Assembly (NCBI GenBank): GCA_964457625.1
Contig: CAYWES010000001.1
Location: 83,725-144,523 of the forward strand
DNA length: 60,799 bases
Source: an uncultured Candidatus Saccharibacteria bacterium
Lineage (GTDB): Bacteria; Patescibacteriota; Minisyncoccia; Phycocordibacterales; UBA1550
Direction: 5' to 3'
The notes under the pieces are model-generated. The model ran no database searches, was not told where the DNA came from, and worked only from the letters and a program-made list of their open reading frames with translations. Positions 4,269 through 29,239 of this stretch are shown piece by piece. Each line of letters starts with the position of its first letter. The stretch's first letter is position 1. A program made the position numbers and the translations under genes.

Positions 4269-4883
4269 ATGACTAATGCAGAGAAAAAACAACAAGTACT
4301 GATTATCCATGGAGGGACGAGCTATAAAGACAGGGAAGATTTTTTGGAAGGGCTCAGACAAAAACAGGTGAACCTTGAGTGGATTGTGGCTCAAAATGAT
4401 TGGAAGGATTACTTACCAGAGAATTTAGGTGAAGATTTTGTGGTATATGCGCCGTCAATGCCCAACAAGCAAAACGCTCAGTATGAAGAGTGGAAAATTA
4501 TGTTTGAGAAGATTTTCACACTTCTTGATGAAAACCCAATTCTCATAGGACATTCTCTAGGGGGAATTTTTCTCGCAAAGTATCTCTCAGAAAATACTGT
4601 TGCCAAAAAGATAAAAAAGACATTTCTTGTAGCTGCCCCACTTTATGACGACCTTGAAGGCGAAGGACTTTATTCATTTGCGCATACAGGAGATTTGCAA
4701 GGGCTCCACAAACAGGGAGGAGAGATCTATATCTATCATAGCGAAGACGATTATGTCGTACCATGTAGTCATGGAGCGGGTTATCATGAAGCACTCCCTG
4801 GTTCAATATTACGCAGTCTCAAAGATCTAGGACACCTAAAGGTTCCTCACATTCCTGGGCTCATAGAAGATATCAAAAAGTAA
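4269..4883 (+). CDS. Alpha/beta-fold serine hydrolase (YdeN/RBBP9-like)
   Basis: Nucleophile elbow GHSLGG. Single-domain size of 204 aa, with Asp and His downstream (SEDDYVV ... GHL). Confidence 0.7.
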   Translation: MTNAEKKQQVLIIHGGTSYKDREDFLEGLRQKQVNLEWIVAQNDWKDYLPENLGEDFVVYAPSMPNKQNAQYEEWKIMFEKIFTLLDENPILIGHSLGGIFLAKYLSENTVAKKIKKTFLVAAPLYDDLEGEGLYSFAHTGDLQGLHKQGGEIYIYHSEDDYVVPCSHGAGYHEALPGSILRSLKDLGHLKVPHIPGLIEDIKK

Positions 4884-4964
4884 ATCTGAGATAATAAAGA
4901 CCAAAATAGTTCTCGTTGAGGAATTTTTGTGGTATTATAAATGTGTTGAAGGTTCTCTCGTAGA

Positions 4965-5669
4965 ATGAAAATTATTCCCCTCGTAACTCAGACAATTCTG
5001 TGGCTCATTACTCGGCCACTTTTTTTGATGTTCGTAAGGGCGAAGACTTATGGGAAAGAGGGTTTGAAAAAAGCTCCGCGGAATGCGATTCTCGCGGTAA
5101 ATCATGTCAGTCAGCTTGACCCAATCATGGTTCTGGTGACACTGGGGCCTTGGTCTCATCTTATGCCCGTGTTTTCTGTTTCTCAGCAAAAGGAATTTTA
5201 CAAGAAAATAGGTCTCTTCGCTCGGTTTTTTTATGGAGGTGTTCTTTTCCGTGCTTTGGGGGCTCATCCCATCCATGTTGGAGCAGGGAACTACGAGCTT
5301 TCTCTCAAAACGCATATTACCATCCTTGAAAAAGGCGGAACCGTAGGTATTTTCCCCGAAGGAAAGAGGACAATAGACGGCACGGTGGGAGAGGCAAGAC
5401 CCGGAGTGGCGTACCTTTTGTGGCGCACAGGAGTTCCTGTCGTCCCCGTGGCGCTCCACGGGCACTATGATATGACAGCAAAGAGTTTCTTTACGCGTAA
5501 GCGCACGATTTCAGTTCATTACGGCAAGCCAATATATAGAGAAGAGCTTTTCCCTCATAACCTAGAAAACAACCCTCCCTCAAAAGAGCAGTTTAAGGCT
5601 GCCGCGCAAGTCATCATGGGGCGAATAAGAGAGATGCATGAAGCAAAAGAAATTCATAAAAAGACGTAG
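4965..5669 (+). CDS. plsC: 1-acyl-sn-glycerol-3-phosphate acyltransferase family (PlsC-like)
   Basis: HX4D motif NHVSQLD, FPEGKRT motif and an N-terminal membrane anchor. Confidence 0.85.
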   Translation: MKIIPLVTQTILWLITRPLFLMFVRAKTYGKEGLKKAPRNAILAVNHVSQLDPIMVLVTLGPWSHLMPVFSVSQQKEFYKKIGLFARFFYGGVLFRALGAHPIHVGAGNYELSLKTHITILEKGGTVGIFPEGKRTIDGTVGEARPGVAYLLWRTGVPVVPVALHGHYDMTAKSFFTRKRTISVHYGKPIYREELFPHNLENNPPSKEQFKAAAQVIMGRIREMHEAKEIHKKT

Positions 5670-5687
5670 TGATAGTATCTGTGCTTG

Positions 5688-5696
5688 TGGTATAAT
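5688..5696 (+). promoter_or_regulatory. Extended -10 box TGgTATAAT, 7 nt upstream of the ATG at 5704 (predicted leaderless start)
   Basis: Read directly from the sequence. No SD lies between the box and the ATG. Confidence 0.55.
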
Positions 5697-5703
5697 GTGA
5701 GAT

Positions 5704-6411
5704 ATGTTGGATTCTAAATTTTGGGCAAAATACTTCCGCGTCTATGATGCTTTAAATCAGCTCATCCCGTACCAAGACCTAATGTCTTTGTTTGTGGAAA
5801 AAACAAAAGAATTGGCGAGAGGGGAAGAGATTCTTGATCTTGGTTCTGGGACAGGCAATCTCTATTCTCGCCTTGAAGCTGAAGGATATATTCTGAAAGG
5901 AGTTGATTTCTCTGAAGAAGGAATTGCTTTACATAAAGAAAAGAAACCTAATGGAGAAGTGATACACGCGGATATTACCAAAATATTACCCTTTCACGAT
6001 GAGGCTTTTGATGGAATAGTAACCAATAATGTCATTTATACACTTTCCCCCGAAGAGCAGATAAAAGTTTTTAAAGAAGTATATCGCAAGGTTAAGCCTA
6101 GTGGGTTTCTCATTAGCTCCAATCTCGCTCCCGATTTTCGGGCGGGTAAAATTTACAACGCACACATTAAACAGTCACTTATTCGAAAAGGACTTTTAAA
6201 AACATTGCTTGATGTAATTCGTTTCTCGATTCCTACTGTTAAAATTTTTTACTATAATTTTTTAATTAAAAGACAAAATATGGGAGGCGGATATCACTTT
6301 CTAGATGAAGCCACTCAAGAACGTTTAATCTCTGATGCAGGGTTCCATATTCTTGGAAGCACAAGAACGTATGGGGGCCAAGCGGTTTGCACGTGGGCCA
6401 GGAAGGACTAA
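5704..6411 (+). CDS. Class I SAM-dependent methyltransferase
   Basis: Motif I ILDLGSGTGNL and a post-I acidic residue (GVDFS). The stop TAA is followed immediately by the ATG of the next gene. Confidence 0.8.
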   Translation: MLDSKFWAKYFRVYDALNQLIPYQDLMSLFVEKTKELARGEEILDLGSGTGNLYSRLEAEGYILKGVDFSEEGIALHKEKKPNGEVIHADITKILPFHDEAFDGIVTNNVIYTLSPEEQIKVFKEVYRKVKPSGFLISSNLAPDFRAGKIYNAHIKQSLIRKGLLKTLLDVIRFSIPTVKIFYYNFLIKRQNMGGGYHFLDEATQERLISDAGFHILGSTRTYGGQAVCTWARKD

Positions 6412-7164
6412 ATGAAAATATACGAGCGGTTAAAATTTAATCACGAAGGTAAGACCAAAGAGATATTTTTCGGAGTACCAGAAACTGCTGAGGAGCTTGA
6501 AAAAATGTATTCTCTCCGTTTTGCTGTGTATGACAAAAAAGATTATTTTAAAGAAGACCTTGATATTAAAACAGACCAAGATCTTTTAGACCAAGAAGGG
6601 AAGTGTCTCTATATTGTTGCTCTTGTAGATGATGGGAGAATCTTAGGAGCGGTTCGGCTCATTCGTGACGATGTGTTGCCTACAGAAAAGTTTTTTAAAT
6701 TTAAAGAACCTGTTGAAATTTCAAGGATTCCTCGGAGCGCTCGAGGTGAGATAGGGCGGTTGGTCGTTCAGCAGTATTCGGGAGACTCCTTTTTTCCAAG
6801 AAATCTTATTCTCTTGTTCATGTTAAAATCTCTTCTTCGCCTTGGGTCAGAAGTTGGCATAGAGGGAGGATATTCATTTGTGAAAAAGACCCTTTGGAAT
6901 AAGCTTGCAAAGCTTGGTGTCCCTATTCATTTGATTCCTGACTATGTGCAAACATATCCAGAAGACGGCTCCCTTTATAATTATTTTAATCAAGAAAAGG
7001 ATCCAGTTTCCCCTACTTTTTTCTTACTTTCTGAGGCAGAAAAATATTTTGAATATTTGCTCGGCGCAAACTCTAAATTGGTACACAAAGAAAAGGACAC
7101 GGATGTATATATACTCAATGATTCACTGTACACAAAGTTTCTAAAACAAATGAAGGTTTTATAA
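6412..7164 (+). CDS. GNAT-fold N-acyltransferase of the FeeM / LuxI-like (N-acyl amino acid or acyl-HSL synthase) type
   Basis: The pattern LRFAVY..(D..D)..ILGAVRL..P.E..F......GEIGRLVV matches the autoinducer-synthase/FeeM core arrangement as I remember it. The gene is translationally coupled to the upstream methyltransferase. Confidence 0.5.
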   Translation: MKIYERLKFNHEGKTKEIFFGVPETAEELEKMYSLRFAVYDKKDYFKEDLDIKTDQDLLDQEGKCLYIVALVDDGRILGAVRLIRDDVLPTEKFFKFKEPVEISRIPRSARGEIGRLVVQQYSGDSFFPRNLILLFMLKSLLRLGSEVGIEGGYSFVKKTLWNKLAKLGVPIHLIPDYVQTYPEDGSLYNYFNQEKDPVSPTFFLLSEAEKYFEYLLGANSKLVHKEKDTDVYILNDSLYTKFLKQMKVL

Positions 7165-21525: not shown

Positions 21526-22593
21526 ATGGCAATCATAATTTCAAACCAAGGCAGAAATGCCGTTAAAATAGATAGATCATCATTCGACAAAGAAGACCAT
21601 CTTCAACGATATATCTACGAAAACCCAGAGAGCATTCCACTCTACGACATCAAGGAAGACATCCGCCTTTTGATACTTGCTCGCGAATTTCCAACCAATA
21701 GCGGTCCCATTGATGCTATCGGAATTGACCAATACGGAGAGTTGTATATCGTAGAGACCAAGCTCTATAAAAATCCAGACAAGCGCACGGTCATTTCCCA
21801 AGCCCTCGACTACGGGGCCGCACTCTGGAAACACTCTAATGATTTCAATGAATTTCTTGGTATCCTCGACGAACATACACAACGAGTTTTCAAACTACGC
21901 ACAACCGACAAGATCAAAGACTTCTTCCATCTTTCCGACGACGAAGTTACTACGACCATAGACAAGGCACGAGCCAACCTAAACAACGGCGTGTTTCATT
22001 TCGTTGTCTTGATGGACAAGCTTGATGATCGCCTTAAGGATCTTATTTTGTACGTGAATCAAAACAGCCAGTTTGATGTATATGCTGTCGAGCTTGAATA
22101 CTACAAACACGATACCTACGAAATCATTATTCCCAAGATTTTCGGTGCAGAAGTGAAAAAAGACATTGCGGTCTCGTCTTCAAGCGGTTCTCGCAGGAAG
22201 TGGACGGAAGAATCTTTGTTTGAAGATGCACGAAATAAACTAACCCAGGACGAGTATCGTGGATTCGAACGCATATATAATTTTTCTAAAGAGTATGCCA
22301 CTGAGATGCGGCTGGGTACTGGTTCATATGGATCTTTCAGTCCGATTTTTGGTAATCTCTCTGACCGCTCACTCTTTACGCTCTCGACCGACAAGCGTCT
22401 CGCGTTCAATTTTGAATGGACTGCTAAGGTAAACGAGTCTTTGGTAGAGGAATACAAGAATAAGCTCGAATCCATCGGCTTCTTGTTTTCTGAAAACTAT
22501 AAGGAATTACGCCCGAGTGTCATGACGGAGGAATGGTTGGCAAAAACCGATGATTTCTTGGGAGTTATCGGGGACCTACTCAAATCCTCTTAG
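21526..22593 (+). CDS. PD-(D/E)XK nuclease-fold protein (NucS/DUF91-like N-terminal module) with about 220 aa of uncharacterised C-terminal extension
   Basis: The N-terminal segment EDHLQRYIYENPESI...GPIDAIGIDQYGELYIVETKLYKNPDKR has the D...(D/E)xK arrangement and the flanking pattern of NucS-type endonuclease domains. Confidence 0.55.
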   Translation: MAIIISNQGRNAVKIDRSSFDKEDHLQRYIYENPESIPLYDIKEDIRLLILAREFPTNSGPIDAIGIDQYGELYIVETKLYKNPDKRTVISQALDYGAALWKHSNDFNEFLGILDEHTQRVFKLRTTDKIKDFFHLSDDEVTTTIDKARANLNNGVFHFVVLMDKLDDRLKDLILYVNQNSQFDVYAVELEYYKHDTYEIIIPKIFGAEVKKDIAVSSSSGSRRKWTEESLFEDARNKLTQDEYRGFERIYNFSKEYATEMRLGTGSYGSFSPIFGNLSDRSLFTLSTDKRLAFNFEWTAKVNESLVEEYKNKLESIGFLFSENYKELRPSVMTEEWLAKTDDFLGVIGDLLKSS

Positions 22594-22792: not shown

Positions 22793-22966
22793 ATGTTCAC
22801 ATCTTCGTTTCTTCAAGGCACGTACGCGTCGTTCGTCCTCTTGGGCTCACTTATTTTGGCCCTTGTTGTAGTTGGGACGTTTTTGTTCCTCGTTTTTGCA
22901 TTCATCATCAGTTTGGGACGATTCGCAATATGGGTCTTCTTAACCAACCCTGACGATGAAAGTTAG
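22793..22966 (+). CDS. Unannotated small hydrophobic protein, 57 aa (MFTSSFLQGTYASFVLLGSLILALVVVGTFLFLVFAFIISLGRFAIWVFLTNPDDES)
   Basis: Translated by hand; it falls below the ORF-track cut-off. It has the strongest SD in the window (AAGGAGG, 22778-22784, 8 nt before the ATG). A hairpin plus T7 terminator follows 20 nt after the stop. Confidence 0.55.
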   Translation: MFTSSFLQGTYASFVLLGSLILALVVVGTFLFLVFAFIISLGRFAIWVFLTNPDDES

Positions 22967-22984
22967 CCTAACCCCCCTACCCAA

Positions 22985-23017
22985 AACCGCACGGCTTCAC
23001 AGCTCGGCGGTTTTTTT
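22985..23017. terminator. Hairpin plus T7 tract between convergent genes (small ORF on plus, ATP-grasp on minus)
   Basis: CCGC..GGCT/AGCT..GCGG imperfect stem followed by TTTTTTT (23011-23017). Confidence 0.55.
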
Positions 23018-23042: not shown

Positions 23043-24068
23043 CTAATTAAGCTTTCTGATATAAACGTCTACTGCCTCAGTAAAAATTTTCTCCAATTTT
23101 GGTTCTTCTTTAACCTTTTCCCAAGTGAACTCCTTTCTACGAAAGAAAAATGATGAATGTTCTACAGCGTATTGCCCAAAGCTTAAGAATTGAAACTCTA
23201 AGAGGAAGTACTCCCCTTCTTTTGTCCCGACATCGATAGAAATAAAGGGGACATTGAAAAACGCAAAAACTTTTTCCGCAAAGTTTAATAAATTTGGCGA
23301 TACATCTTTTGGAAATGATAAAATTCCACTACCGCTTGCTCGGAAATCTCCTGGGCGATTTTTTCTCTCAAGGACATAAAACCTATCACTGTATATAATT
23401 ATTTTATAGTCACAGGAAAGACCTGAGATAAAATTTTGGGTTATAAATTTCTTGCGAAAGTTTGATATTGCTTTAAATCCTCTTCCGTTTAAAGTGCCAC
23501 GAATAAATCTTTTTAAGTTTGTGGTAGAATAACTTTTTGATACCCAACGAGCCATATGAAAAGCTTCTCTTTGGGATAAAGCAAGTCGTATCCCCCTACT
23601 CTTTGACCCAGCTGCTGGCTTTATAACAAGTGGGAGTGAATTTTTATTAAGAGATCTTTGAAACTCGTCAAATGTTCCATATTTTTCTGAAACAAAATTT
23701 TGAATTAAGGAGAGGTTACTAGTATCCCTTAGGATTTCCATAAATACTTTATTGTGATGTGCTCTAAATTTTAAAAAATCCGGTATTAATATAGCACCTT
23801 TAATTTGAAGTCCTAATAAGACATCTTCAATATAGTCTTTATAATAAAGTCCAGGATCCTCTGCGGATTGGTACAGTATAAACGCCTCTGTGTATTTATT
23901 AGAGTAAAAATTTATATCTGAGAATTTTTCAATTTCAACACGATACCCCATCTCTTCGAATAAACTTTTAATACAGGAGGTATCCATACTTCCCGCTACT
24001 TCTTTTGTTGATGAATAGAAGGTGTTTCTGTAATCTACTAAAATGAAAATTTTTTTAAGTATTTTCAT
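23043..24068 (-). CDS. ATP-grasp fold ligase (RimK-like/unassigned subfamily)
   Basis: LPLVIKPAAGSKSRGI (phosphate-binding strand), DFRASGSG, and the Mg/ATP site pattern ISIDVGTKEGEYFLLEFQ. AT-rich codon usage. The start overlaps the NUDIX stop (ATGA). Confidence 0.75.
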   Translation of the reverse strand: MKILKKIFILVDYRNTFYSSTKEVAGSMDTSCIKSLFEEMGYRVEIEKFSDINFYSNKYTEAFILYQSAEDPGLYYKDYIEDVLLGLQIKGAILIPDFLKFRAHHNKVFMEILRDTSNLSLIQNFVSEKYGTFDEFQRSLNKNSLPLVIKPAAGSKSRGIRLALSQREAFHMARWVSKSYSTTNLKRFIRGTLNGRGFKAISNFRKKFITQNFISGLSCDYKIIIYSDRFYVLERKNRPGDFRASGSGILSFPKDVSPNLLNFAEKVFAFFNVPFISIDVGTKEGEYFLLEFQFLSFGQYAVEHSSFFFRRKEFTWEKVKEEPKLEKIFTEAVDVYIRKLN

Positions 24069-24592
24069 TTTTTAAATATTTCTTCAAAAAAAATCTGGTC
24101 CCTGACCGCGTTAAACGCAGTATTGTAAAATTTTACCCTCCCACTTCTAACTTTCTCTACTTGTTCCTTTAGAGTTTTTCTGGCAAAATCCTCTTGAAGC
24201 CAGACAAAGGATAGATTATTTGCGCGCTCATCTTCCGTCCTTAAGTCCTCGCTTGTTTTTTCTCTTGGTTCTGACAAAAAACAAACTGTTTGGTACTCTT
24301 TGGCGTCTCGATTACGAAACTCAAGTATCCTTCCAACCTCTTTTGTAATTTTAGTATTGTAACCCGTTTCCTCTATACACTCTCTTTTTATTTCTTTCTC
24401 TAGGCACTGACTATCAGAGCCCCCACCAGCCAAGAGGTATAATCCATGAATGGAATTCGTTATAAAGCCATATTCTCCATTTTTATTTTTGATAATAGCT
24501 TTCACTGTGGTTCTCTTTTCATAATGATTCGGGGTAGCATATTCTGGCTGAGAAAAGATATCCTTATCATGTAAGACTGCTAAGTAGTTCAT
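24065..24592 (-). CDS. NUDIX hydrolase
   Basis: Complete Nudix box GGGSDSQCLEKEIKRECIEETGY (GX5EX7REUXEEXGU). Confidence 0.9.
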   Translation of the reverse strand: MNYLAVLHDKDIFSQPEYATPNHYEKRTTVKAIIKNKNGEYGFITNSIHGLYLLAGGGSDSQCLEKEIKRECIEETGYNTKITKEVGRILEFRNRDAKEYQTVCFLSEPREKTSEDLRTEDERANNLSFVWLQEDFARKTLKEQVEKVRSGRVKFYNTAFNAVRDQIFFEEIFKK

Positions 24593-24598
24593 ACTTCC

Positions 24599-24607
24599 AT
24601 TTTATCA
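24599..24607 (-). promoter_or_regulatory. Extended -10 box TGaTAAAAT (minus strand), 6 nt upstream of the NUDIX ATG at 24592
   Basis: Read from the reverse complement. Confidence 0.5.
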
Positions 24608-24644
24608 TAAAAATAGGACTCTTCAGAAAAAATTGAAGAGTCCT
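24605..24644 (-). terminator. Intrinsic terminator after the histidine phosphatase gene
   Basis: Perfect 11-bp stem AGGACTCTTCA / TGAAGAGTCCT with an 8-nt loop, followed on the minus strand by ATTTTTAT. Confidence 0.65.
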
Positions 24645-24650
24645 AAAGTT

Positions 24651-25295
24651 TTAGACGATGTCAAAGCTAATTTTGGGCAAAGGTTCTTTTAGTATAAAAT
24701 CCCCAGTACCCAAATGGTTAAGCGTTGCCACATAGCAATTGGGTGGGTTTGCAAGAAGTCTGAATTCTTCATCGCTAATATTTAAAAAAGCTTTGACGAT
24801 AACCCTCAACGCAAACCCATGTGTAAAAATTACAACACATTCCGGGTGTTCTTTAGATAGCCCGTCTTTTTTCAATGTCCTTACAAAAGTCTCAATTTTA
24901 CGTACAAAATCAGGAGTAGAGTCTCCTTGAGGAAATTGAAAATGTAATACACCAACGCGGTACCTTTCCTTCTCTACTTCTTTTATGCTTTTTTCATCTA
25001 CGTTGCCCCAATTTAGGTTCCTAATGCATTGTTCAGTTTTGATGCAAAAATCAACCAAGGGAAACTTCGAACAGAACAATGTCATTGTTTGTTCAGCACG
25101 GTTTGAAGGAGAAGTGATTATCTTTACCTTTTTGTGTTTGGATATCAGTGGAGCTAAAATCCTAACAATCTCCAAAACCTGTCCTTTGCCCATCGTTGTA
25201 ATTGAGATACGTCGATCAGAAACGTAGTTACGTATACCAGGTCTAGTATCTTCGCTCGACTGAGCATGTCTTACAAGAAAGATTTGCTCTAACAC
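24651..25295 (-). CDS. Histidine phosphatase superfamily (PGAM/cofactor-dependent mutase-like branch)
   Basis: RHA motif (LVRHAQS), SPSNRAEQT and a distal THG histidine. GTG start preceded by AGGAGG with a 6-nt spacer. Confidence 0.85.
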   Translation of the reverse strand: MLEQIFLVRHAQSSEDTRPGIRNYVSDRRISITTMGKGQVLEIVRILAPLISKHKKVKIITSPSNRAEQTMTLFCSKFPLVDFCIKTEQCIRNLNWGNVDEKSIKEVEKERYRVGVLHFQFPQGDSTPDFVRKIETFVRTLKKDGLSKEHPECVVIFTHGFALRVIVKAFLNISDEEFRLLANPPNCYVATLNHLGTGDFILKEPLPKISFDIV

Positions 25296-25334
25296 AGTAC
25301 ACCTCCTATTTTGAGTATAAAAGAACTACTTAAA

Positions 25335-25362
25335 ATTTTATAAAAAAGAATACAAACGTCAA
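25335..25362 (-). promoter_or_regulatory. Sigma70-type promoter TTGACG-N16-TAAAAT (minus strand) for the histidine phosphatase gene
   Basis: Read from the reverse complement. The -35 box abuts the epimerase stop codon. Confidence 0.5.
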
Positions 25363-26262
25363 CTATGTTTTTTTATCAAGTTTAGTTGACTTAATTATTT
25401 TTCTAATTCCAAGAGACCATGGCGTTTGCGCTCTCCACCCTAATAATTTTTTTGCCTTGGAAACACTTATTTTTTCGTGCAATATTTGGTTCCTTCTTTG
25501 CCCTACATGAATAATTTTACTTTTTGATTTTATAATTTTTTTAATATCTTTCGCCATAGTTAGCGCTGATATATTTTCAGAAGTAGAGAGATTGATTGTT
25601 TGGTTAACTACTCTATTTTTGTTTTTCAAAACCTTAACACATGCATCAATAAGATCCTCAACGTAAGTTAGTGTTCTTGTTTGCTTGCCACTCCCATGGA
25701 CCGTTATATCTTCATCTCTTCGAGCTTGATCTATAAAAATTTGAACCCCCAAAGCGGATCTCATCCCTACTCCATATGTTGTTGGAAATCTTAATATGGT
25801 GTATTCAAGGTCAAATGATTTGTTAAATCCTTTTATTATGGATTCAGCTGCGTACTTAGAGTATGCATACATCTCAGATGGGTTCGGTAAGATAGTATCT
25901 TCAATCCCAGACTTTTTAATATTTCCATAAACACATAATGTAGAAGCAAAGATTAACCACTTCTGATATTTGGAACAAATAAGTGCAATATTTTGAGTAG
26001 CTACAATATTTATATTTAATCCAATTTTTACTTTATCAAGGTTCTTAACCATCTCATTTAAATCAGCTTGTGCTGCGATGTGGTAAACAATATCTACTTT
26101 TTTTATAGCACGTTCGACTTTATCAAAATCTAGCAAGTCGTCACCGTCTATGAGATCAAAGCCATAAACTTCATAACCTAGCCCAACTAGCTTTCTGTAA
26201 AGATGGCGACCAATGAATCCACGATGTCCGGTTATCAATACTTTTGGTTTGGTAGTCTTCAT
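25363..26262 (-). CDS. NAD-dependent epimerase/dehydratase (extended SDR, nucleotide-sugar type)
   Basis: Rossmann motif ITGHRGFIGRHL and catalytic YAYSK (YxxxK). 299 aa. Confidence 0.85.
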   Translation of the reverse strand: MKTTKPKVLITGHRGFIGRHLYRKLVGLGYEVYGFDLIDGDDLLDFDKVERAIKKVDIVYHIAAQADLNEMVKNLDKVKIGLNINIVATQNIALICSKYQKWLIFASTLCVYGNIKKSGIEDTILPNPSEMYAYSKYAAESIIKGFNKSFDLEYTILRFPTTYGVGMRSALGVQIFIDQARRDEDITVHGSGKQTRTLTYVEDLIDACVKVLKNKNRVVNQTINLSTSENISALTMAKDIKKIIKSKSKIIHVGQRRNQILHEKISVSKAKKLLGWRAQTPWSLGIRKIIKSTKLDKKT

Positions 26263-26282: not shown

Positions 26283-26939
26283 CTATTTTCTTACATTTTT
26301 AGTCTTCCCGTGGAACTTTTTGAGTGGACAATGCGCGTGATCGTGCCGAGTTGCTTTGCAGTAGGTCCTGCCGTATTCAATGAAAAGATACGTTGCCTTG
26401 AACCAATCTTCTTGCGGAATGATTGCCATGAGGTCTCGTTCAATATGTATCGGATTCTCTGATTTGGTCAGCCCAAATACCCTTGCCAAGCGCTTCACAT
26501 GGGTATCCACCGCTACGCCTTCCACTACCCCATATGCATTCCCGAGGACTACATTTCCTGTCTTGCGTGCTACACCAGGTATTAGGAGTATTTCTTTCAT
26601 CGTTCGAGGGATTTCTCCGCCGTATACTTCCTTTACCATTTTTGCTGCCGCGAGGATGTTTTTTGTTTTTGCGCGATAGAACCCCGTCTGAAAGATATCT
26701 TTCTCAAACTCCCGCGGATTGGCATGCACATAGTCATCAAGCGTTCTGTATTTTTTGAAAAGCTTTTCGGTCACCTCGTTTACCTTCTTGTCGGTGCATT
26801 GCGCTGAAAGCTCCACAGCGACAAGGAGCTCCCAATTGTTTGAATACTTGAGAATCATCCCCGCAGTTGGAAAGAGCTTTCTCAATTCAGAGAGAATCGC
26901 CCCAGCTTTTTCTTGGAGTTGTTTATTCTTTGATGGCAT
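26283..26939 (-). CDS. nth: Endonuclease III-like HhH-GPD DNA glycosylase/lyase, without the canonical 4-Cys Fe-S motif
   Basis: HhH motif LLIPGVARKTGNVV with the catalytic Lys, and Asp in VDTHVKRL. The C-terminus has only CKATRHDHAHC. I prefer the start at 26939 (MPSKNKQ); the ORF track extends to 26993. Confidence 0.85.
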   Translation of the reverse strand: MPSKNKQLQEKAGAILSELRKLFPTAGMILKYSNNWELLVAVELSAQCTDKKVNEVTEKLFKKYRTLDDYVHANPREFEKDIFQTGFYRAKTKNILAAAKMVKEVYGGEIPRTMKEILLIPGVARKTGNVVLGNAYGVVEGVAVDTHVKRLARVFGLTKSENPIHIERDLMAIIPQEDWFKATYLFIEYGRTYCKATRHDHAHCPLKKFHGKTKNVRK

Positions 26940-27744
26940 AGAGTCTTCCCTGCTTATGAATAAATCCTTCTTGCATGAGGTCTTTGATGACATGCTCTAC
27001 GAGATTTTCTTGTGTGACGAGTTCTTTTTTGAGATGCGCAAGTGTTTGAGCTTCTTTTGTAAGAAGTTTTATGATATTTCCCCGCACTTGCCGACGGGAA
27101 CCTTTGAAAGTGCTTTGGCGCACATAGTGCTTGCTCTTAGTATTTGCGTTCCCTCCCCTGCGCGGAAGCTCTGATCCGTAGTCCATCAGCGCCCAGCACC
27201 ATGTGCGGGGGTCTTTTTGATCGAGTGATTGTTCAATGAGAGGAAAAAGTTCTTTATCATGAATCCCCTCTCTATCTTGAAAAAAATGGTGAATAAATAC
27301 ACGACGGATGTTTGTCTCAATAAAGACTTCAGGCTCATTCCATGCAAACGTGCGAATTGCGCCTGCGGTATAGGCCCCGATGCCGGGCAGGGATTCCAAA
27401 TCTTTGCGGTCTTGTGGGATTTTGCCATGAAAGCGACGCGTCACCTCATCTGCAATGCGTTTCAAGGCAAGTGCGCGCCTGTTGTAGCCCATCCCTTGCC
27501 ACACGGCGAGCACTTCACTGAGCGGTGCTTTGTGGAGCGCAGTAATGGTCGGAAACTTTTTCAAAAACTCAGGATATTTTTGAAGCACACGACTTACTTG
27601 CGTCTGCTGGAGCATTACTTCAGAGACAAGGATGTGATACGGGTTCTTTGTCTTTCTCCACGGAAGCGAGCGTTTGTTCTTGGCATAAAAGTCCAAGACA
27701 GTATGCTGAAAAGACGGTAAGTTTTTCTCGGTTCTTGATGCCAT
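26923..27744 (-). CDS. MutY-like adenine glycosylase catalytic domain (HhH-GPD) with a non-canonical C-terminus
   Basis: LPWRKTKNPYHILVSEVMLQQTQV is the MutY N-terminal signature, and the HhH motif LPGIGAYTAGAI is present. There are no Fe-S cysteines and no NUDIX-like 8-oxoG domain; a short basic/helical tail takes their place. Confidence 0.8.
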   Translation of the reverse strand: MASRTEKNLPSFQHTVLDFYAKNKRSLPWRKTKNPYHILVSEVMLQQTQVSRVLQKYPEFLKKFPTITALHKAPLSEVLAVWQGMGYNRRALALKRIADEVTRRFHGKIPQDRKDLESLPGIGAYTAGAIRTFAWNEPEVFIETNIRRVFIHHFFQDREGIHDKELFPLIEQSLDQKDPRTWCWALMDYGSELPRRGGNANTKSKHYVRQSTFKGSRRQVRGNIIKLLTKEAQTLAHLKKELVTQENLVEHVIKDLMQEGFIHKQGRLYAIKE

Positions 27745-28889: not shown

Positions 28890-29162
28890 ATGGCAACCAA
28901 AAAAGCTGGAGGTACAGCATCAAACCTAACCGATTCAAAGCCAAAGTTCCTCGGAACGAAGCTTTACGCCGGAGAAGTTGCAAAACCGGGTTCTATCATC
29001 GTGCGTCAGCGCGGCACAAAGATTCTTCCGGGAACAAACGTGGGCATGGGCAAGGATCACACCCTCTATGCGCTCAAGGAAGGTACTGTTGAGTTTACGG
29101 AGAAGCGCAAGAAGAATTTTGACGGCACGAGCAAGCGTCGCAAGGTTGCAAATGTAAAGTAA
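28890..29162 (+). CDS. rpmA: 50S ribosomal protein L27
   Basis: [17 protein letters not shown]...G......[23 protein letters not shown] is the canonical L27 sequence. Confidence 0.95.
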
Positions 29163-29184
29163 CTCTTCTTCTCAAAGATTAAAC

Positions 29185-29216
29185 AAAAACCTCGCCATCT
29201 TGTGGTGAGGTTTTTA
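29185..29216. terminator. Bidirectional terminator between rpmA and rplI
   Basis: AAAACCTCGCCA-tctt-GTGGTGAGGTTTTT: a hairpin flanked by an A-run and a T-run. Confidence 0.7.
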
Positions 29217-29239
29217 TTTGGCAGAGGATTTGCGCCAAA

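Follow-up and report, generated by a model that had tools for sequence, protein, structure and literature searches.

A conserved ATP-grasp, NUDIX and histidine phosphatase gene trio of Candidate Phyla Radiation bacteria, and a possible role in amide ligation on a phosphorylated substrate

The 60,799-nucleotide stretch analysed here (the window; contig CAYWES010000001.1 of assembly GCA_964457625.1, forward-strand positions 83,725 to 144,523) was deposited as part of an uncultured Candidatus Saccharibacteria bacterium, placed within the Patescibacteriota by the Genome Taxonomy Database (GTDB). It carries, at 23043-26262, a block of four minus-strand open reading frames (ORFs) that encode a predicted ATP-grasp ligase, a NUDIX hydrolase, a phosphoglycerate mutase (PGAM)-type histidine phosphatase and an extended short-chain dehydrogenase/reductase (SDR; Table 1). 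An initial annotation, made from the nucleotide sequence without database searches, had proposed these ORFs and family assignments; Pfam searches, AlphaFold2 (AF2) models and Foldseek comparisons between them support all four. Comparison with other genomes from the ultra-small bacteria of the Candidate Phyla Radiation (CPR) indicates that the ATP-grasp, NUDIX and phosphatase genes, here called the trio or module, very likely encode one pathway.

Table 1. Genes and sequence elements in and around the four-gene block, in window coordinates.
Feature	Position	Strand	Description
ATP-grasp ligase	23043..24068	-	341 aa; RimK/LysX/ArgX-like; unnamed family without Pfam model
Divergent NUDIX hydrolase	24065..24592	-	175 aa; stop overlaps ATP-grasp start
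PGAM-type (branch 1) histidine phosphatase	24651..25295	-	214 aa; GTG start 25295-25293; AGGAGG Shine-Dalgarno sequence 25307-25302
Extended SDR, NDP-sugar (nucleoside diphosphate sugar) epimerase/reductase type	25363..26262	-	299 aa; accessory gene of the module
Intrinsic-terminator-like element	24604..24645	-	between phosphatase and NUDIX genes; 12-bp hairpin and U-tract
Candidate sigma-70-like promoter, TTGACG-N16-TAAAAT	25335..25362	-	upstream of phosphatase gene; consensus match only, 10/12
GC-rich hairpin flanked by A and T runs	22984..23016		between ATP-grasp stop and convergent ORF

In the ATP-grasp profile scan, which covered one genome per GTDB species, 64 loci were found; the phosphatase gene (H) and the NUDIX gene (N) are directly adjacent to the ATP-grasp gene (G) in the Patescibacteria loci, and not in other phyla. 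Run in the opposite direction, with the phosphatase profile, the scan gave 34 loci, exclusively in Patescibacteria, and N and G are adjacent in about 30 of them. After de-duplication, about 34 trio loci are distributed over four gene orders: G>H>N (about 15 loci), H< >N>G (12-13 loci, with an AsnB-like gene directly downstream in 11-12 of them), H>N>G (the window and loci L001, L021 and L104) and G> <N<H (L014). Since the order H>N>G is shared by close relatives (about 69% identity) and by one distant relative (44%), the gene order has changed repeatedly while the linkage was kept. In two loci the NUDIX and ATP-grasp genes are fused into a single ORF (L083, 4315-5874, minus strand, 519 aa; L092, about 4311-5876, minus strand, 520 aa); an AsnB-like gene comes immediately after it, and the phosphatase gene is oriented divergently. 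Linkage in about 34 loci, the four orders and the fusions together provide strong evidence that the three proteins act together. The co-conservation on which the initial annotation had made its proposal depend is thus found outside the window, for a smaller unit than the four-gene cassette it had envisaged: by the distribution of the genes, the conserved unit consists of the trio, mostly from Paceibacteria/Parcubacteria, and the SDR is an accessory of one subclade only, where it lies beside the trio in at least two other lineages, while another clade has the AsnB-like gene.

Two observations concern the quality of the database records. In L005, L019, L026 and L051/L095 a frameshift or stop breaks the ATP-grasp or NUDIX gene into two ORFs, which reflects either errors in the sequences of metagenome-assembled genomes (MAGs) or decay of the copies. 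Near-identical trio contigs (L007 and L008) are found in the database within MAGs labelled 'Pseudomonadota' and 'Woesearchaeota' and probably represent a mis-binned Patescibacteria contig; many of the 'Saccharibacteria' labels in the same third-party annotation (TPA) set may be generic.

The ATP-grasp protein belongs to a family of more than 1100 homologues, almost all of them unnamed. The window protein has no Pfam match, and its NCBIfam matches reach 15-16 bits where the cut-offs exceed 600; among 30 homologues, 9-10 weakly match the curated RimK or ATP-grasp_4 models. The AF2 model, built with 30 homologues (predicted local distance difference test, pLDDT, 90; predicted template modelling score, pTM, 0.88), shows a three-domain ATP-grasp fold, and a Foldseek search with it gave 442 matches in the Protein Data Bank (PDB) at E <= 0.001, headed by the ligases ArgX, RimK and LysX (E = 1e-14 to 1e-11; template modelling [TM] scores 0.55-0.69). 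As in these ligases, the ATP-binding lysine and the acidic metal ligands are kept (K150, D279, E291); together with R243 and Q293 they are invariant across 30 to 65 homologues. We take the RASGS loop of the window protein to be the counterpart of the xNxxRGG loop of the RimK/LysX family. In contrast to the RimK/LysX/ArgX ligases, with which the window protein shares only 12-16% identity, the family has glutamine at the usual asparagine metal-ligand position, keeps company with other gene partners, and has an N-terminal domain rich in invariant charged residues, arranged in motifs of its own (DYR, YQSxED and RAHHNK). The possibility that the protein is an inositol or inositol pyrophosphate (PP-InsP) kinase was considered and rejected; the matches are at noise level (2odt, E = 1; Ins134_P3_kin in 2 of 30 members, E = 0.011). 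No characterised member of the family was found. Outside the CPR, homologues of 35-45% identity that keep nearly all of the invariant residues occur in polysaccharide clusters of Bacteroidota, Myxococcota, Planctomycetota and Lachnospiraceae; a family 4 glycosyltransferase (GT4) is almost always a neighbour, and the other cluster genes include those for Wzx, UDP-GlcNAc 2-epimerase, DegT, AsnB, PGA_cap and DUF362.

The NUDIX protein is divergent: at 18.4 bits the window copy falls under the Pfam cut-off of 21.1, and most of its homologues carry PF00293. Its AF2 model (34 homologues; pLDDT 94) has the NUDIX fold, with 395 NUDIX matches in the PDB. The Nudix box, described as intact in the initial annotation, reads G-x5-Q-x7-REcIEEtGY; its first glycine and the REx2EE segment are invariant in the family, but glutamine replaces the first glutamate, at a position that the family does not conserve, and the final glycine, present in the window copy, is variable elsewhere. 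The catalytic core is, on this pattern, kept within a non-canonical box. The family also has an invariant GGG motif and a C-terminal motif of its own, FYNTxFNxxRD. In comparisons with solved structures, the NUDIX profile found the Enterococcus faecalis protein 2azw (function unknown) as best match, followed by the diphosphoinositol polyphosphate phosphohydrolases DIPP1-3 and Ddp1, over whose whole domain it aligns (E about 2e-8); in the alignment YEKR stands opposite YKKR and FRxRDxK opposite ERKHR, PGGG is common to both, and the basic substrate-binding positions are covered. The Foldseek relatives are similar, with 2azw, Mycobacterium smegmatis MutT1, DR1025 of Deinococcus radiodurans, the DIPPs and the diadenosine polyphosphate (Ap4A and Ap6A) hydrolases at the top; the DIPP-type entries hold ranks 9 to 36, and bacterial MutT1, DR1025 and 2azw score as well or better. 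A census of the NUDIX family (726 clusters at E <= 1e-10) yielded no annotation or gene context bearing on function.

The histidine phosphatase matches Pfam His_Phos_1 (2.7e-18, 66.8 bits against a cut-off of 21.7), and its full catalytic set (R9, H10, R66, E108 and H159) is invariant. Its nearest solved relatives are the fructose-2,6-bisphosphatase domain, the phosphoserine phosphatase PspA and the sedoheptulose bisphosphatase Shb17; it falls under every NCBIfam equivalog cut-off tested (CobC, dPGM, PspA and SixA), the best being CobC with 48.7 bits against 162.9. On the evidence of conserved residues, the trio is thereby shown to be a catalytically intact set of a predicted ligase, a predicted pyrophosphatase and a predicted phosphatase.

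The SDR matches Pfam Epimerase (4e-41, 141 bits), with full-length matches to both Epimerase and RmlD_sub_bind, and has the motifs of this family: GHRGFIG (GxxGxxG), T108 and Y-x3-K (YAYSK). It thus resembles SDRs of the GalE, UDP-glucuronate 4-epimerase and GDP-fucose synthase type in its nucleotide-binding motif, its T/Y/K triad and its full-length Pfam matches; unlike them, it stays under all NCBIfam equivalog cut-offs. A 4,6-dehydratase of the RmlB/LegB type was rejected on two grounds, the scores for TIGR01181 and TIGR04180 (96-97 bits against cut-offs of 365 and 475) and the missing acid pair, T-L-C taking the place of T-D-E with cysteine at the position of the dehydratase glutamate. The gene is absent from most trio loci (40 or more), and a scan of representative genomes with the SDR retrieved relatives of only 22-23% identity; on this basis it had at one point been considered unrelated to the module. 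That view was overturned by a protein search, in which the nearest relatives (69-72% identity) adjoin the trio on independent metagenome contigs, in the arrangement G>H>N>SDR in L100-L103 and SDR>H>N>G in L104. The SDR of the window is 70.5% identical to that of L100, whereas the trio proteins of the two loci share only 50, 44 and 39% identity; L104 and L100 likewise have SDRs of 78% and trio proteins of 40-51% identity. The subclade defined by at least 65% identity was found only beside the trio. Because such close SDRs sit at different positions beside divergent trios, the pattern argues for repeated recruitment of the same SDR to the module and for a functional tie, as opposed to a hitch-hiking gene. 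More distant homologues (about 55% identity) are found in clusters for the modification of NDP-sugars, accompanied by another SDR, a DegT aminotransferase and a glycosyltransferase. One of them (P0201, in L105/L106) lies in a phage-like or mobile-looking region (SU10_adaptor, NUMOD3) that carries SDR-SDR-DegT-glycosyltransferase sugar-modification genes.

Among 95 genes flanking 32 trio loci, no family recurs except the asparagine-synthase-like (AsnB-like) one, with 11 genes. Sporadic neighbours of the trio are additional NUDIX paralogues, small P-loop kinases and cytidylyl- or nucleotidyltransferases. In L100 (1636-8900, plus strand) and L009 (7055-12660, plus strand) a GNAT acetyltransferase gene (Acetyltransf_3) and a gene for a small cytidylate-kinase-like P-loop protein lie ahead of the trio in the same orientation, an arrangement that may represent an extended operon; L100 also has a type-I phosphodiesterase/nucleotide pyrophosphatase gene and a nucleotidyltransferase-like ORF, and L009 has two extra NUDIX paralogues. 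Searches of Pfam, NCBIfam and PDB sequences gave superfamily-level matches only, all under equivalog cut-offs, in agreement with the initial annotation, which had assigned the cassette to no characterised pathway; literature searches for the three-family combination in the CPR found no description of the module. The module is accordingly an undescribed one built from known enzyme folds, with an ATP-grasp family that lacks a curated model.

The block stands out from its surroundings by composition. Its G+C content is 34.6% (0.346) against 46.1% (0.461) in the rest of the window (z = -5.9), below that of all 512 other segments of the same size (their minimum 0.397); third-position G+C (GC3) is 0.26-0.34, compared with 0.48-0.56 in neighbouring genes, and the tetranucleotide distance is 0.432 against 0.17 +/- 0.026 elsewhere (maximum otherwise 0.268). 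The shift first noticed from hand counts therefore survives a computed profile; the counts of single lines were accurate (0.283, 0.217, 0.417 and 0.517), but they overstate the contrast if read as region averages.

Several signals bear on expression. The ATGA overlap at 24065-24068 joins the NUDIX stop to the ATP-grasp start, a junction at which the two genes are predicted to be translationally coupled. Between the phosphatase and NUDIX genes, a 12-bp perfect stem at 24614-24645 is followed by a T-tract (folding free energy, dG, -18.6 kcal/mol; z = -5.7; equalled by none of 200 shuffled sequences). L104 has an equivalent hairpin in the corresponding position, where a C-G pair has become U-A by a compensatory change, and for this reason the hairpin is probably functional; the element as a whole (24604-24645) is probably an internal attenuator. 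Since the NUDIX and ATP-grasp genes both lie behind this conserved terminator-like hairpin, their products would probably be made at a lower level than the phosphatase. The initial annotation had already pointed out a hairpin with T-tract here, the ATGA overlap, and the promoter-like TTGACG-N16-TAAAAT, AGGAGG and GTG elements of the phosphatase gene, and all are present; across the region, sites resembling promoters do not exceed their frequency in shuffled sequence. At the other end of the block, a convergent ORF for a small membrane protein (22793-22966, plus strand) faces the ATP-grasp stop, and the GC-rich hairpin in the intervening spacer (dG -17.4; z = -1.9, a weak value; not called by the terminator scan) is likely a bidirectional terminator that marks the downstream edge of the AT-rich block. 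No Rfam riboswitch or leader that would name a ligand was found beside the module in 10 loci or in the window.

The deviant composition had suggested horizontal acquisition, and this idea holds for the module as a whole and less well for the window. Across loci, the module has a G+C content of 0.30-0.46 in hosts of 0.30-0.51, and it lies 5-12 G+C points under its flanks in about 16 of the 42 loci compared, which are partly redundant. In 7 loci out of 34, where 1.4 are expected (P = 6e-4), the distance from the edge of the module to a tRNA gene is no more than 300 nt. At the level of the whole family, the module behaves, to judge from these patterns, as a small AT-rich island that spreads among CPR genomes. 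The window itself is collinear with L001, a Candidatus Yonathbacteria contig, over at least 16 genes, with the trio at the same place; the trio proteins are 67-69% identical between the two, and the flanking proteins 45-81%. Because the trio is syntenic in L001 and has diverged to a degree like that of its housekeeping neighbours, it has been resident since before the split from the Yonathbacteria relative, and any acquisition is therefore old; the SDR is the newer addition in the window lineage. The window has no convincing flanking repeats and no integrase among the neighbouring ORFs. The ATP-grasp gave no plasmid or phage matches in tblastn searches, and IMG/VR contained one ATP-grasp-only locus and no histidine phosphatase; in collections of phages and plasmids the module is thus all but absent. 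Over the full 60.8 kb of the window, ARAGORN detected neither a tRNA nor a tmRNA gene; elsewhere, in the CPR loci examined, the density is about one tRNA per 15 kb.

Apart from the trio, the stretch from the M23 peptidase gene to the MutY-like gene varies between the window and L001; here it contains a 355-aa PDC-S11/NucS-like gene, the small membrane ORF, the SDR gene and nth, so that the block lies in a variable segment, possibly one of defence-island-like character. The 355-aa ORF (21526-22593, plus strand) matches the PADLOC candidate families PDC-S11 (2e-16) and PDC-S18 and, weakly, the N-terminal part of the NucS endonuclease; it has no Pfam match and is absent from the syntenic site in L001. 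Upstream of the block lie two consecutive HhH-GPD DNA glycosylase genes on the minus strand, Nth-like (26283-26993, 236 aa) and MutY-like (26923-27744, 273 aa), which overlap by 71 nt as called; the Nth-like stop is only 20 nt from the SDR start, and L001 has the MutY-like gene, with no Nth-like match found there. Farther away, a second stretch of low G+C (0.37-0.39) at 5704-7164 on the plus strand includes one ORF of 235 aa that resembles methyltransferases and one of 250 aa with unknown function; it is followed directly by two genes of seven-transmembrane (7TM) histidine-kinase-like type, and it may be another acquired block. A sub-threshold match to the enterobacterial rnk leader of Rfam (29117-29223, plus strand; 34.5 bits, with the gathering score at 50; E = 0.006) spans the end of the L27-like gene (28890-29162) and the beginning of the downstream spacer, and is probably due to chance.

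The reading that we prefer, at a probability of roughly 0.4, is that the module encodes one cytoplasmic pathway in which an amide is ligated on a nucleotide-linked or phosphorylated, probably sugar-acid, substrate, followed by the removal of pyrophosphate and phosphate. The shared substrate would be small, nucleotide-linked or phosphorylated, and carboxylate-bearing, most plausibly an activated acidic sugar. The SDR would epimerise or reduce an NDP-sugar; the ATP-grasp enzyme would activate the carboxylate as an acyl-phosphate and join it to an amine, either an amino acid or a phospho-amine. In the clades that have AsnB in place of the SDR, the AsnB-like amidotransferase would amidate the carboxylate of the same substrate or product. 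The NUDIX enzyme could then cut the pyrophosphate link, and the histidine phosphatase could strip the remaining phosphate, leaving a neutral amide-linked product or an envelope precursor. An AsnB-like protein, WbpS, probably makes uronamides in the O6 antigen of Pseudomonas aeruginosa. A biochemical precedent for the ligase and phosphatase steps exists in the capsule amidation of Campylobacter jejuni, where a phospho-amine is ligated to the glucuronate carboxylate by the ATP-grasp enzyme Cj1438 and the product is then dephosphorylated by Cj1435 (PMC11800379). The C. jejuni system shares with the module the pairing of an ATP-grasp ligase with a phosphatase, and homologues of the window ATP-grasp are likewise found in polysaccharide loci; it differs in that the C-terminal domain of Cj1438 is TupA-like, a model that only 1 of 30 module ATP-grasps touches, and weakly; that Cj1435 is a haloacid dehalogenase (HAD) phosphatase and not a histidine phosphatase; that no NUDIX partner is present; and that the substrate of the C. 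jejuni enzymes is a polymer under elongation, encoded by a locus rich in glycosyltransferases, whereas the CPR module has no glycosyltransferase nearby.

Several points weigh against this pathway. Every one of its chemical steps is derived from fold and gene context. A pair of hydrolytic enzymes such as the NUDIX protein and the phosphatase could form a catabolic or regulatory branch, and not a biosynthetic one. The NUDIX protein, named a pyrophosphatase in the initial annotation, looks in profile and fold comparisons closer to polyphosphate and nucleoside-polyphosphate hydrolases of the MutT1, DIPP and ApnA-hydrolase types than to NDP-sugar hydrolases, which rank lower among its fold matches (TM 0.42-0.48). 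The AsnB-like partner passes the TIGR01536 equivalog cut-off for ordinary asparagine synthase and could simply make asparagine. The trio-linked ATP-grasps and those of the polysaccharide clusters may use different substrates, because they differ at several otherwise fixed positions (R14, Q67, N184, Y226 and Q299). The initial annotation had remarked that no glycosyltransferase, flippase or polymerase adjoins the block, and the same holds for the 95 genes flanking CPR trio loci; for this reason, a role in envelope glycans is only conjectural. Finally, an AT bias that has persisted since before the split from L001 fits poorly with a simple recent transfer.

The main alternative, which we consider unlikely, is a housekeeping role in the metabolism of nucleotides or polyphosphate, or the turnover of a metabolite used in signalling, by a MutT1-like pair of NUDIX enzyme and phosphatase. 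A dinucleoside or nucleoside polyphosphate, polyphosphate (polyP), phosphoribosyl pyrophosphate (PRPP) or a damaged nucleoside triphosphate would be broken down stepwise to the monophosphate or nucleoside, and the ATP-grasp enzyme would make or recycle the same phosphorylated compound or attach an amino acid to it. The solved structures closest to the NUDIX protein (MutT1, DR1025, DIPP1-3, Ddp1 and the Ap4A/Ap6A hydrolases) point in this direction, as does the whole-domain DIPP alignment with its basic substrate-binding positions; DIPP-type enzymes cleave PP-InsP, polyP, Ap5/6A and, weakly, PRPP (PMC13573052). Mycobacterial MutT1 is itself a fusion of a NUDIX domain with a branch-1 (RHG) histidine phosphatase domain in one functional unit (PMC11784022), and its NUDIX domain is among the best fold matches (ranks 2, 5, 7 and further; TMq about 0.58). 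The sugar-bisphosphatase relatives of the module phosphatase (fructose-2,6-bisphosphatase, Shb17) and the NUDIX paralogues, P-loop kinases and cytidylyl- or nucleotidyltransferases near some trio loci are also consistent with housekeeping. The parallel with MutT1 is limited, however: NUDIX and phosphatase are separate genes in the window, as in all loci, the fusion partner of the module NUDIX is the ATP-grasp, MutT1 lacks a ligase partner, and the phosphatase profile does not retrieve the C-terminal domain of MutT1. Moreover, the NUDIX fold matches are modest (TM 0.5-0.6, E = 1e-7 to 1e-8), and global similarity predicts NUDIX specificity poorly. Housekeeping leaves unaccounted for the obligate linkage, and even fusion, of a RimK/LysX-type ligase with the NUDIX protein, the repeated recruitment of an NDP-sugar SDR or AsnB, and the occurrence of ATP-grasp homologues in polysaccharide clusters. 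Another reading, in which the trio is a prokaryotic make-and-destroy system for a phosphoanhydride metabolite (a pyro- or polyphosphorylated sugar or an inositol-like messenger), is very improbable. The ATP-grasp enzyme would then act as a kinase or phospho-ligase, the DIPP-like NUDIX enzyme would take the beta-phosphate, and the histidine phosphatase would take the monoester. What speaks for it is limited to the NUDIX similarity and the coincidence of three superfamilies with the eukaryotic PP-InsP toolkit, in which PPIP5K combines an ATP-grasp kinase with a histidine phosphatase domain and DIPP is a NUDIX enzyme. In contrast to that toolkit, the window phosphatase belongs to branch 1 (PGAM) and not to branch 2; the window ATP-grasp is nearest to ligases, with PPIP5K and ITPK1 outside its top 50 fold matches and outside its sequence matches; and the only recurrent module partners found point to sugar-acid and amide chemistry. 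PPIP5K-type enzymes have been reported absent from prokaryotes (PMC13573052); if the phosphoanhydride proposal were true, bacteria would have a counterpart, by analogy or by common ancestry, to the eukaryotic PPIP5K/DIPP toolkit for inositol pyrophosphates.

A different substrate class is conceivable, since the closest ATP-grasp structures include RimK, which acts on ribosomal protein S6, and LysX/ArgX, which act on the LysW carrier: the ATP-grasp enzyme could add amino acids to a protein or peptide carboxylate, with the NUDIX protein and the phosphatase in regulatory roles or as (phospho)protein phosphatases. The NUDIX domain of mycobacterial MutT1 dephosphorylates phosphorylated nucleoside diphosphate kinase (NDK) and sensor kinases (PMC11784022, PMC12407098), and the ATP-grasp domain of yeast Pby1 binds the NUDIX domain of Dcp2 in its putative active site (PMC7293026). 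Modification of a protein is nevertheless improbable; the neighbour census of the trio loci revealed no conserved gene for a small carrier or precursor peptide, the SDR and AsnB accessories suggest small-molecule chemistry, and the homologues outside the CPR are found in glycan clusters and not beside ribosomal or carrier proteins. Island-like composition in a variable region, the neighbouring gene with its PDC-S11 match at 2e-16 and the enrichment beside tRNA genes would suit anti-phage defence or inter-microbial conflict, and the initial annotation had drawn a link to Ter-operon-associated and other conflict systems. This link finds no backing: ATPgrasp_Ter (PF15632) matches 0 of 30 family members, none of the four block proteins has a PADLOC match, PHROGs returned generic NUDIX, SDR and unknown matches only, and no Ter, nuclease, toxin or sensor gene is linked among the 95 neighbours. 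With the lack of phage and plasmid copies and stable inheritance within housekeeping synteny in two genomes, a defence function is highly doubtful. The notion that unrelated housekeeping genes lie together by chance in an AT-rich stretch could draw on the absence of the SDR from most trio loci, on promoter-like sites no more frequent than in shuffles and on the terminator-like hairpin that splits the block; for the trio it is effectively refuted by the linkage in different orders and as fusions, by the agreement of forward and reverse searches and, for the block at large, by the repeated recruitment of the same SDR, so that we give it hardly any credence.

For the biology of the CPR, whose metabolism is minimal and whose gene content is largely unassigned, the module, which at 2.3-3.2 kb can be cloned, offers a concrete starting point for finding a new metabolite or a modification of the cell envelope. 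An echo of MutT1 in the combination of NUDIX enzyme and phosphatase, or of the PP-InsP toolkit in the three folds, would be of wider interest if confirmed; and solving the chemistry of the ATP-grasp family would annotate many glycan clusters.

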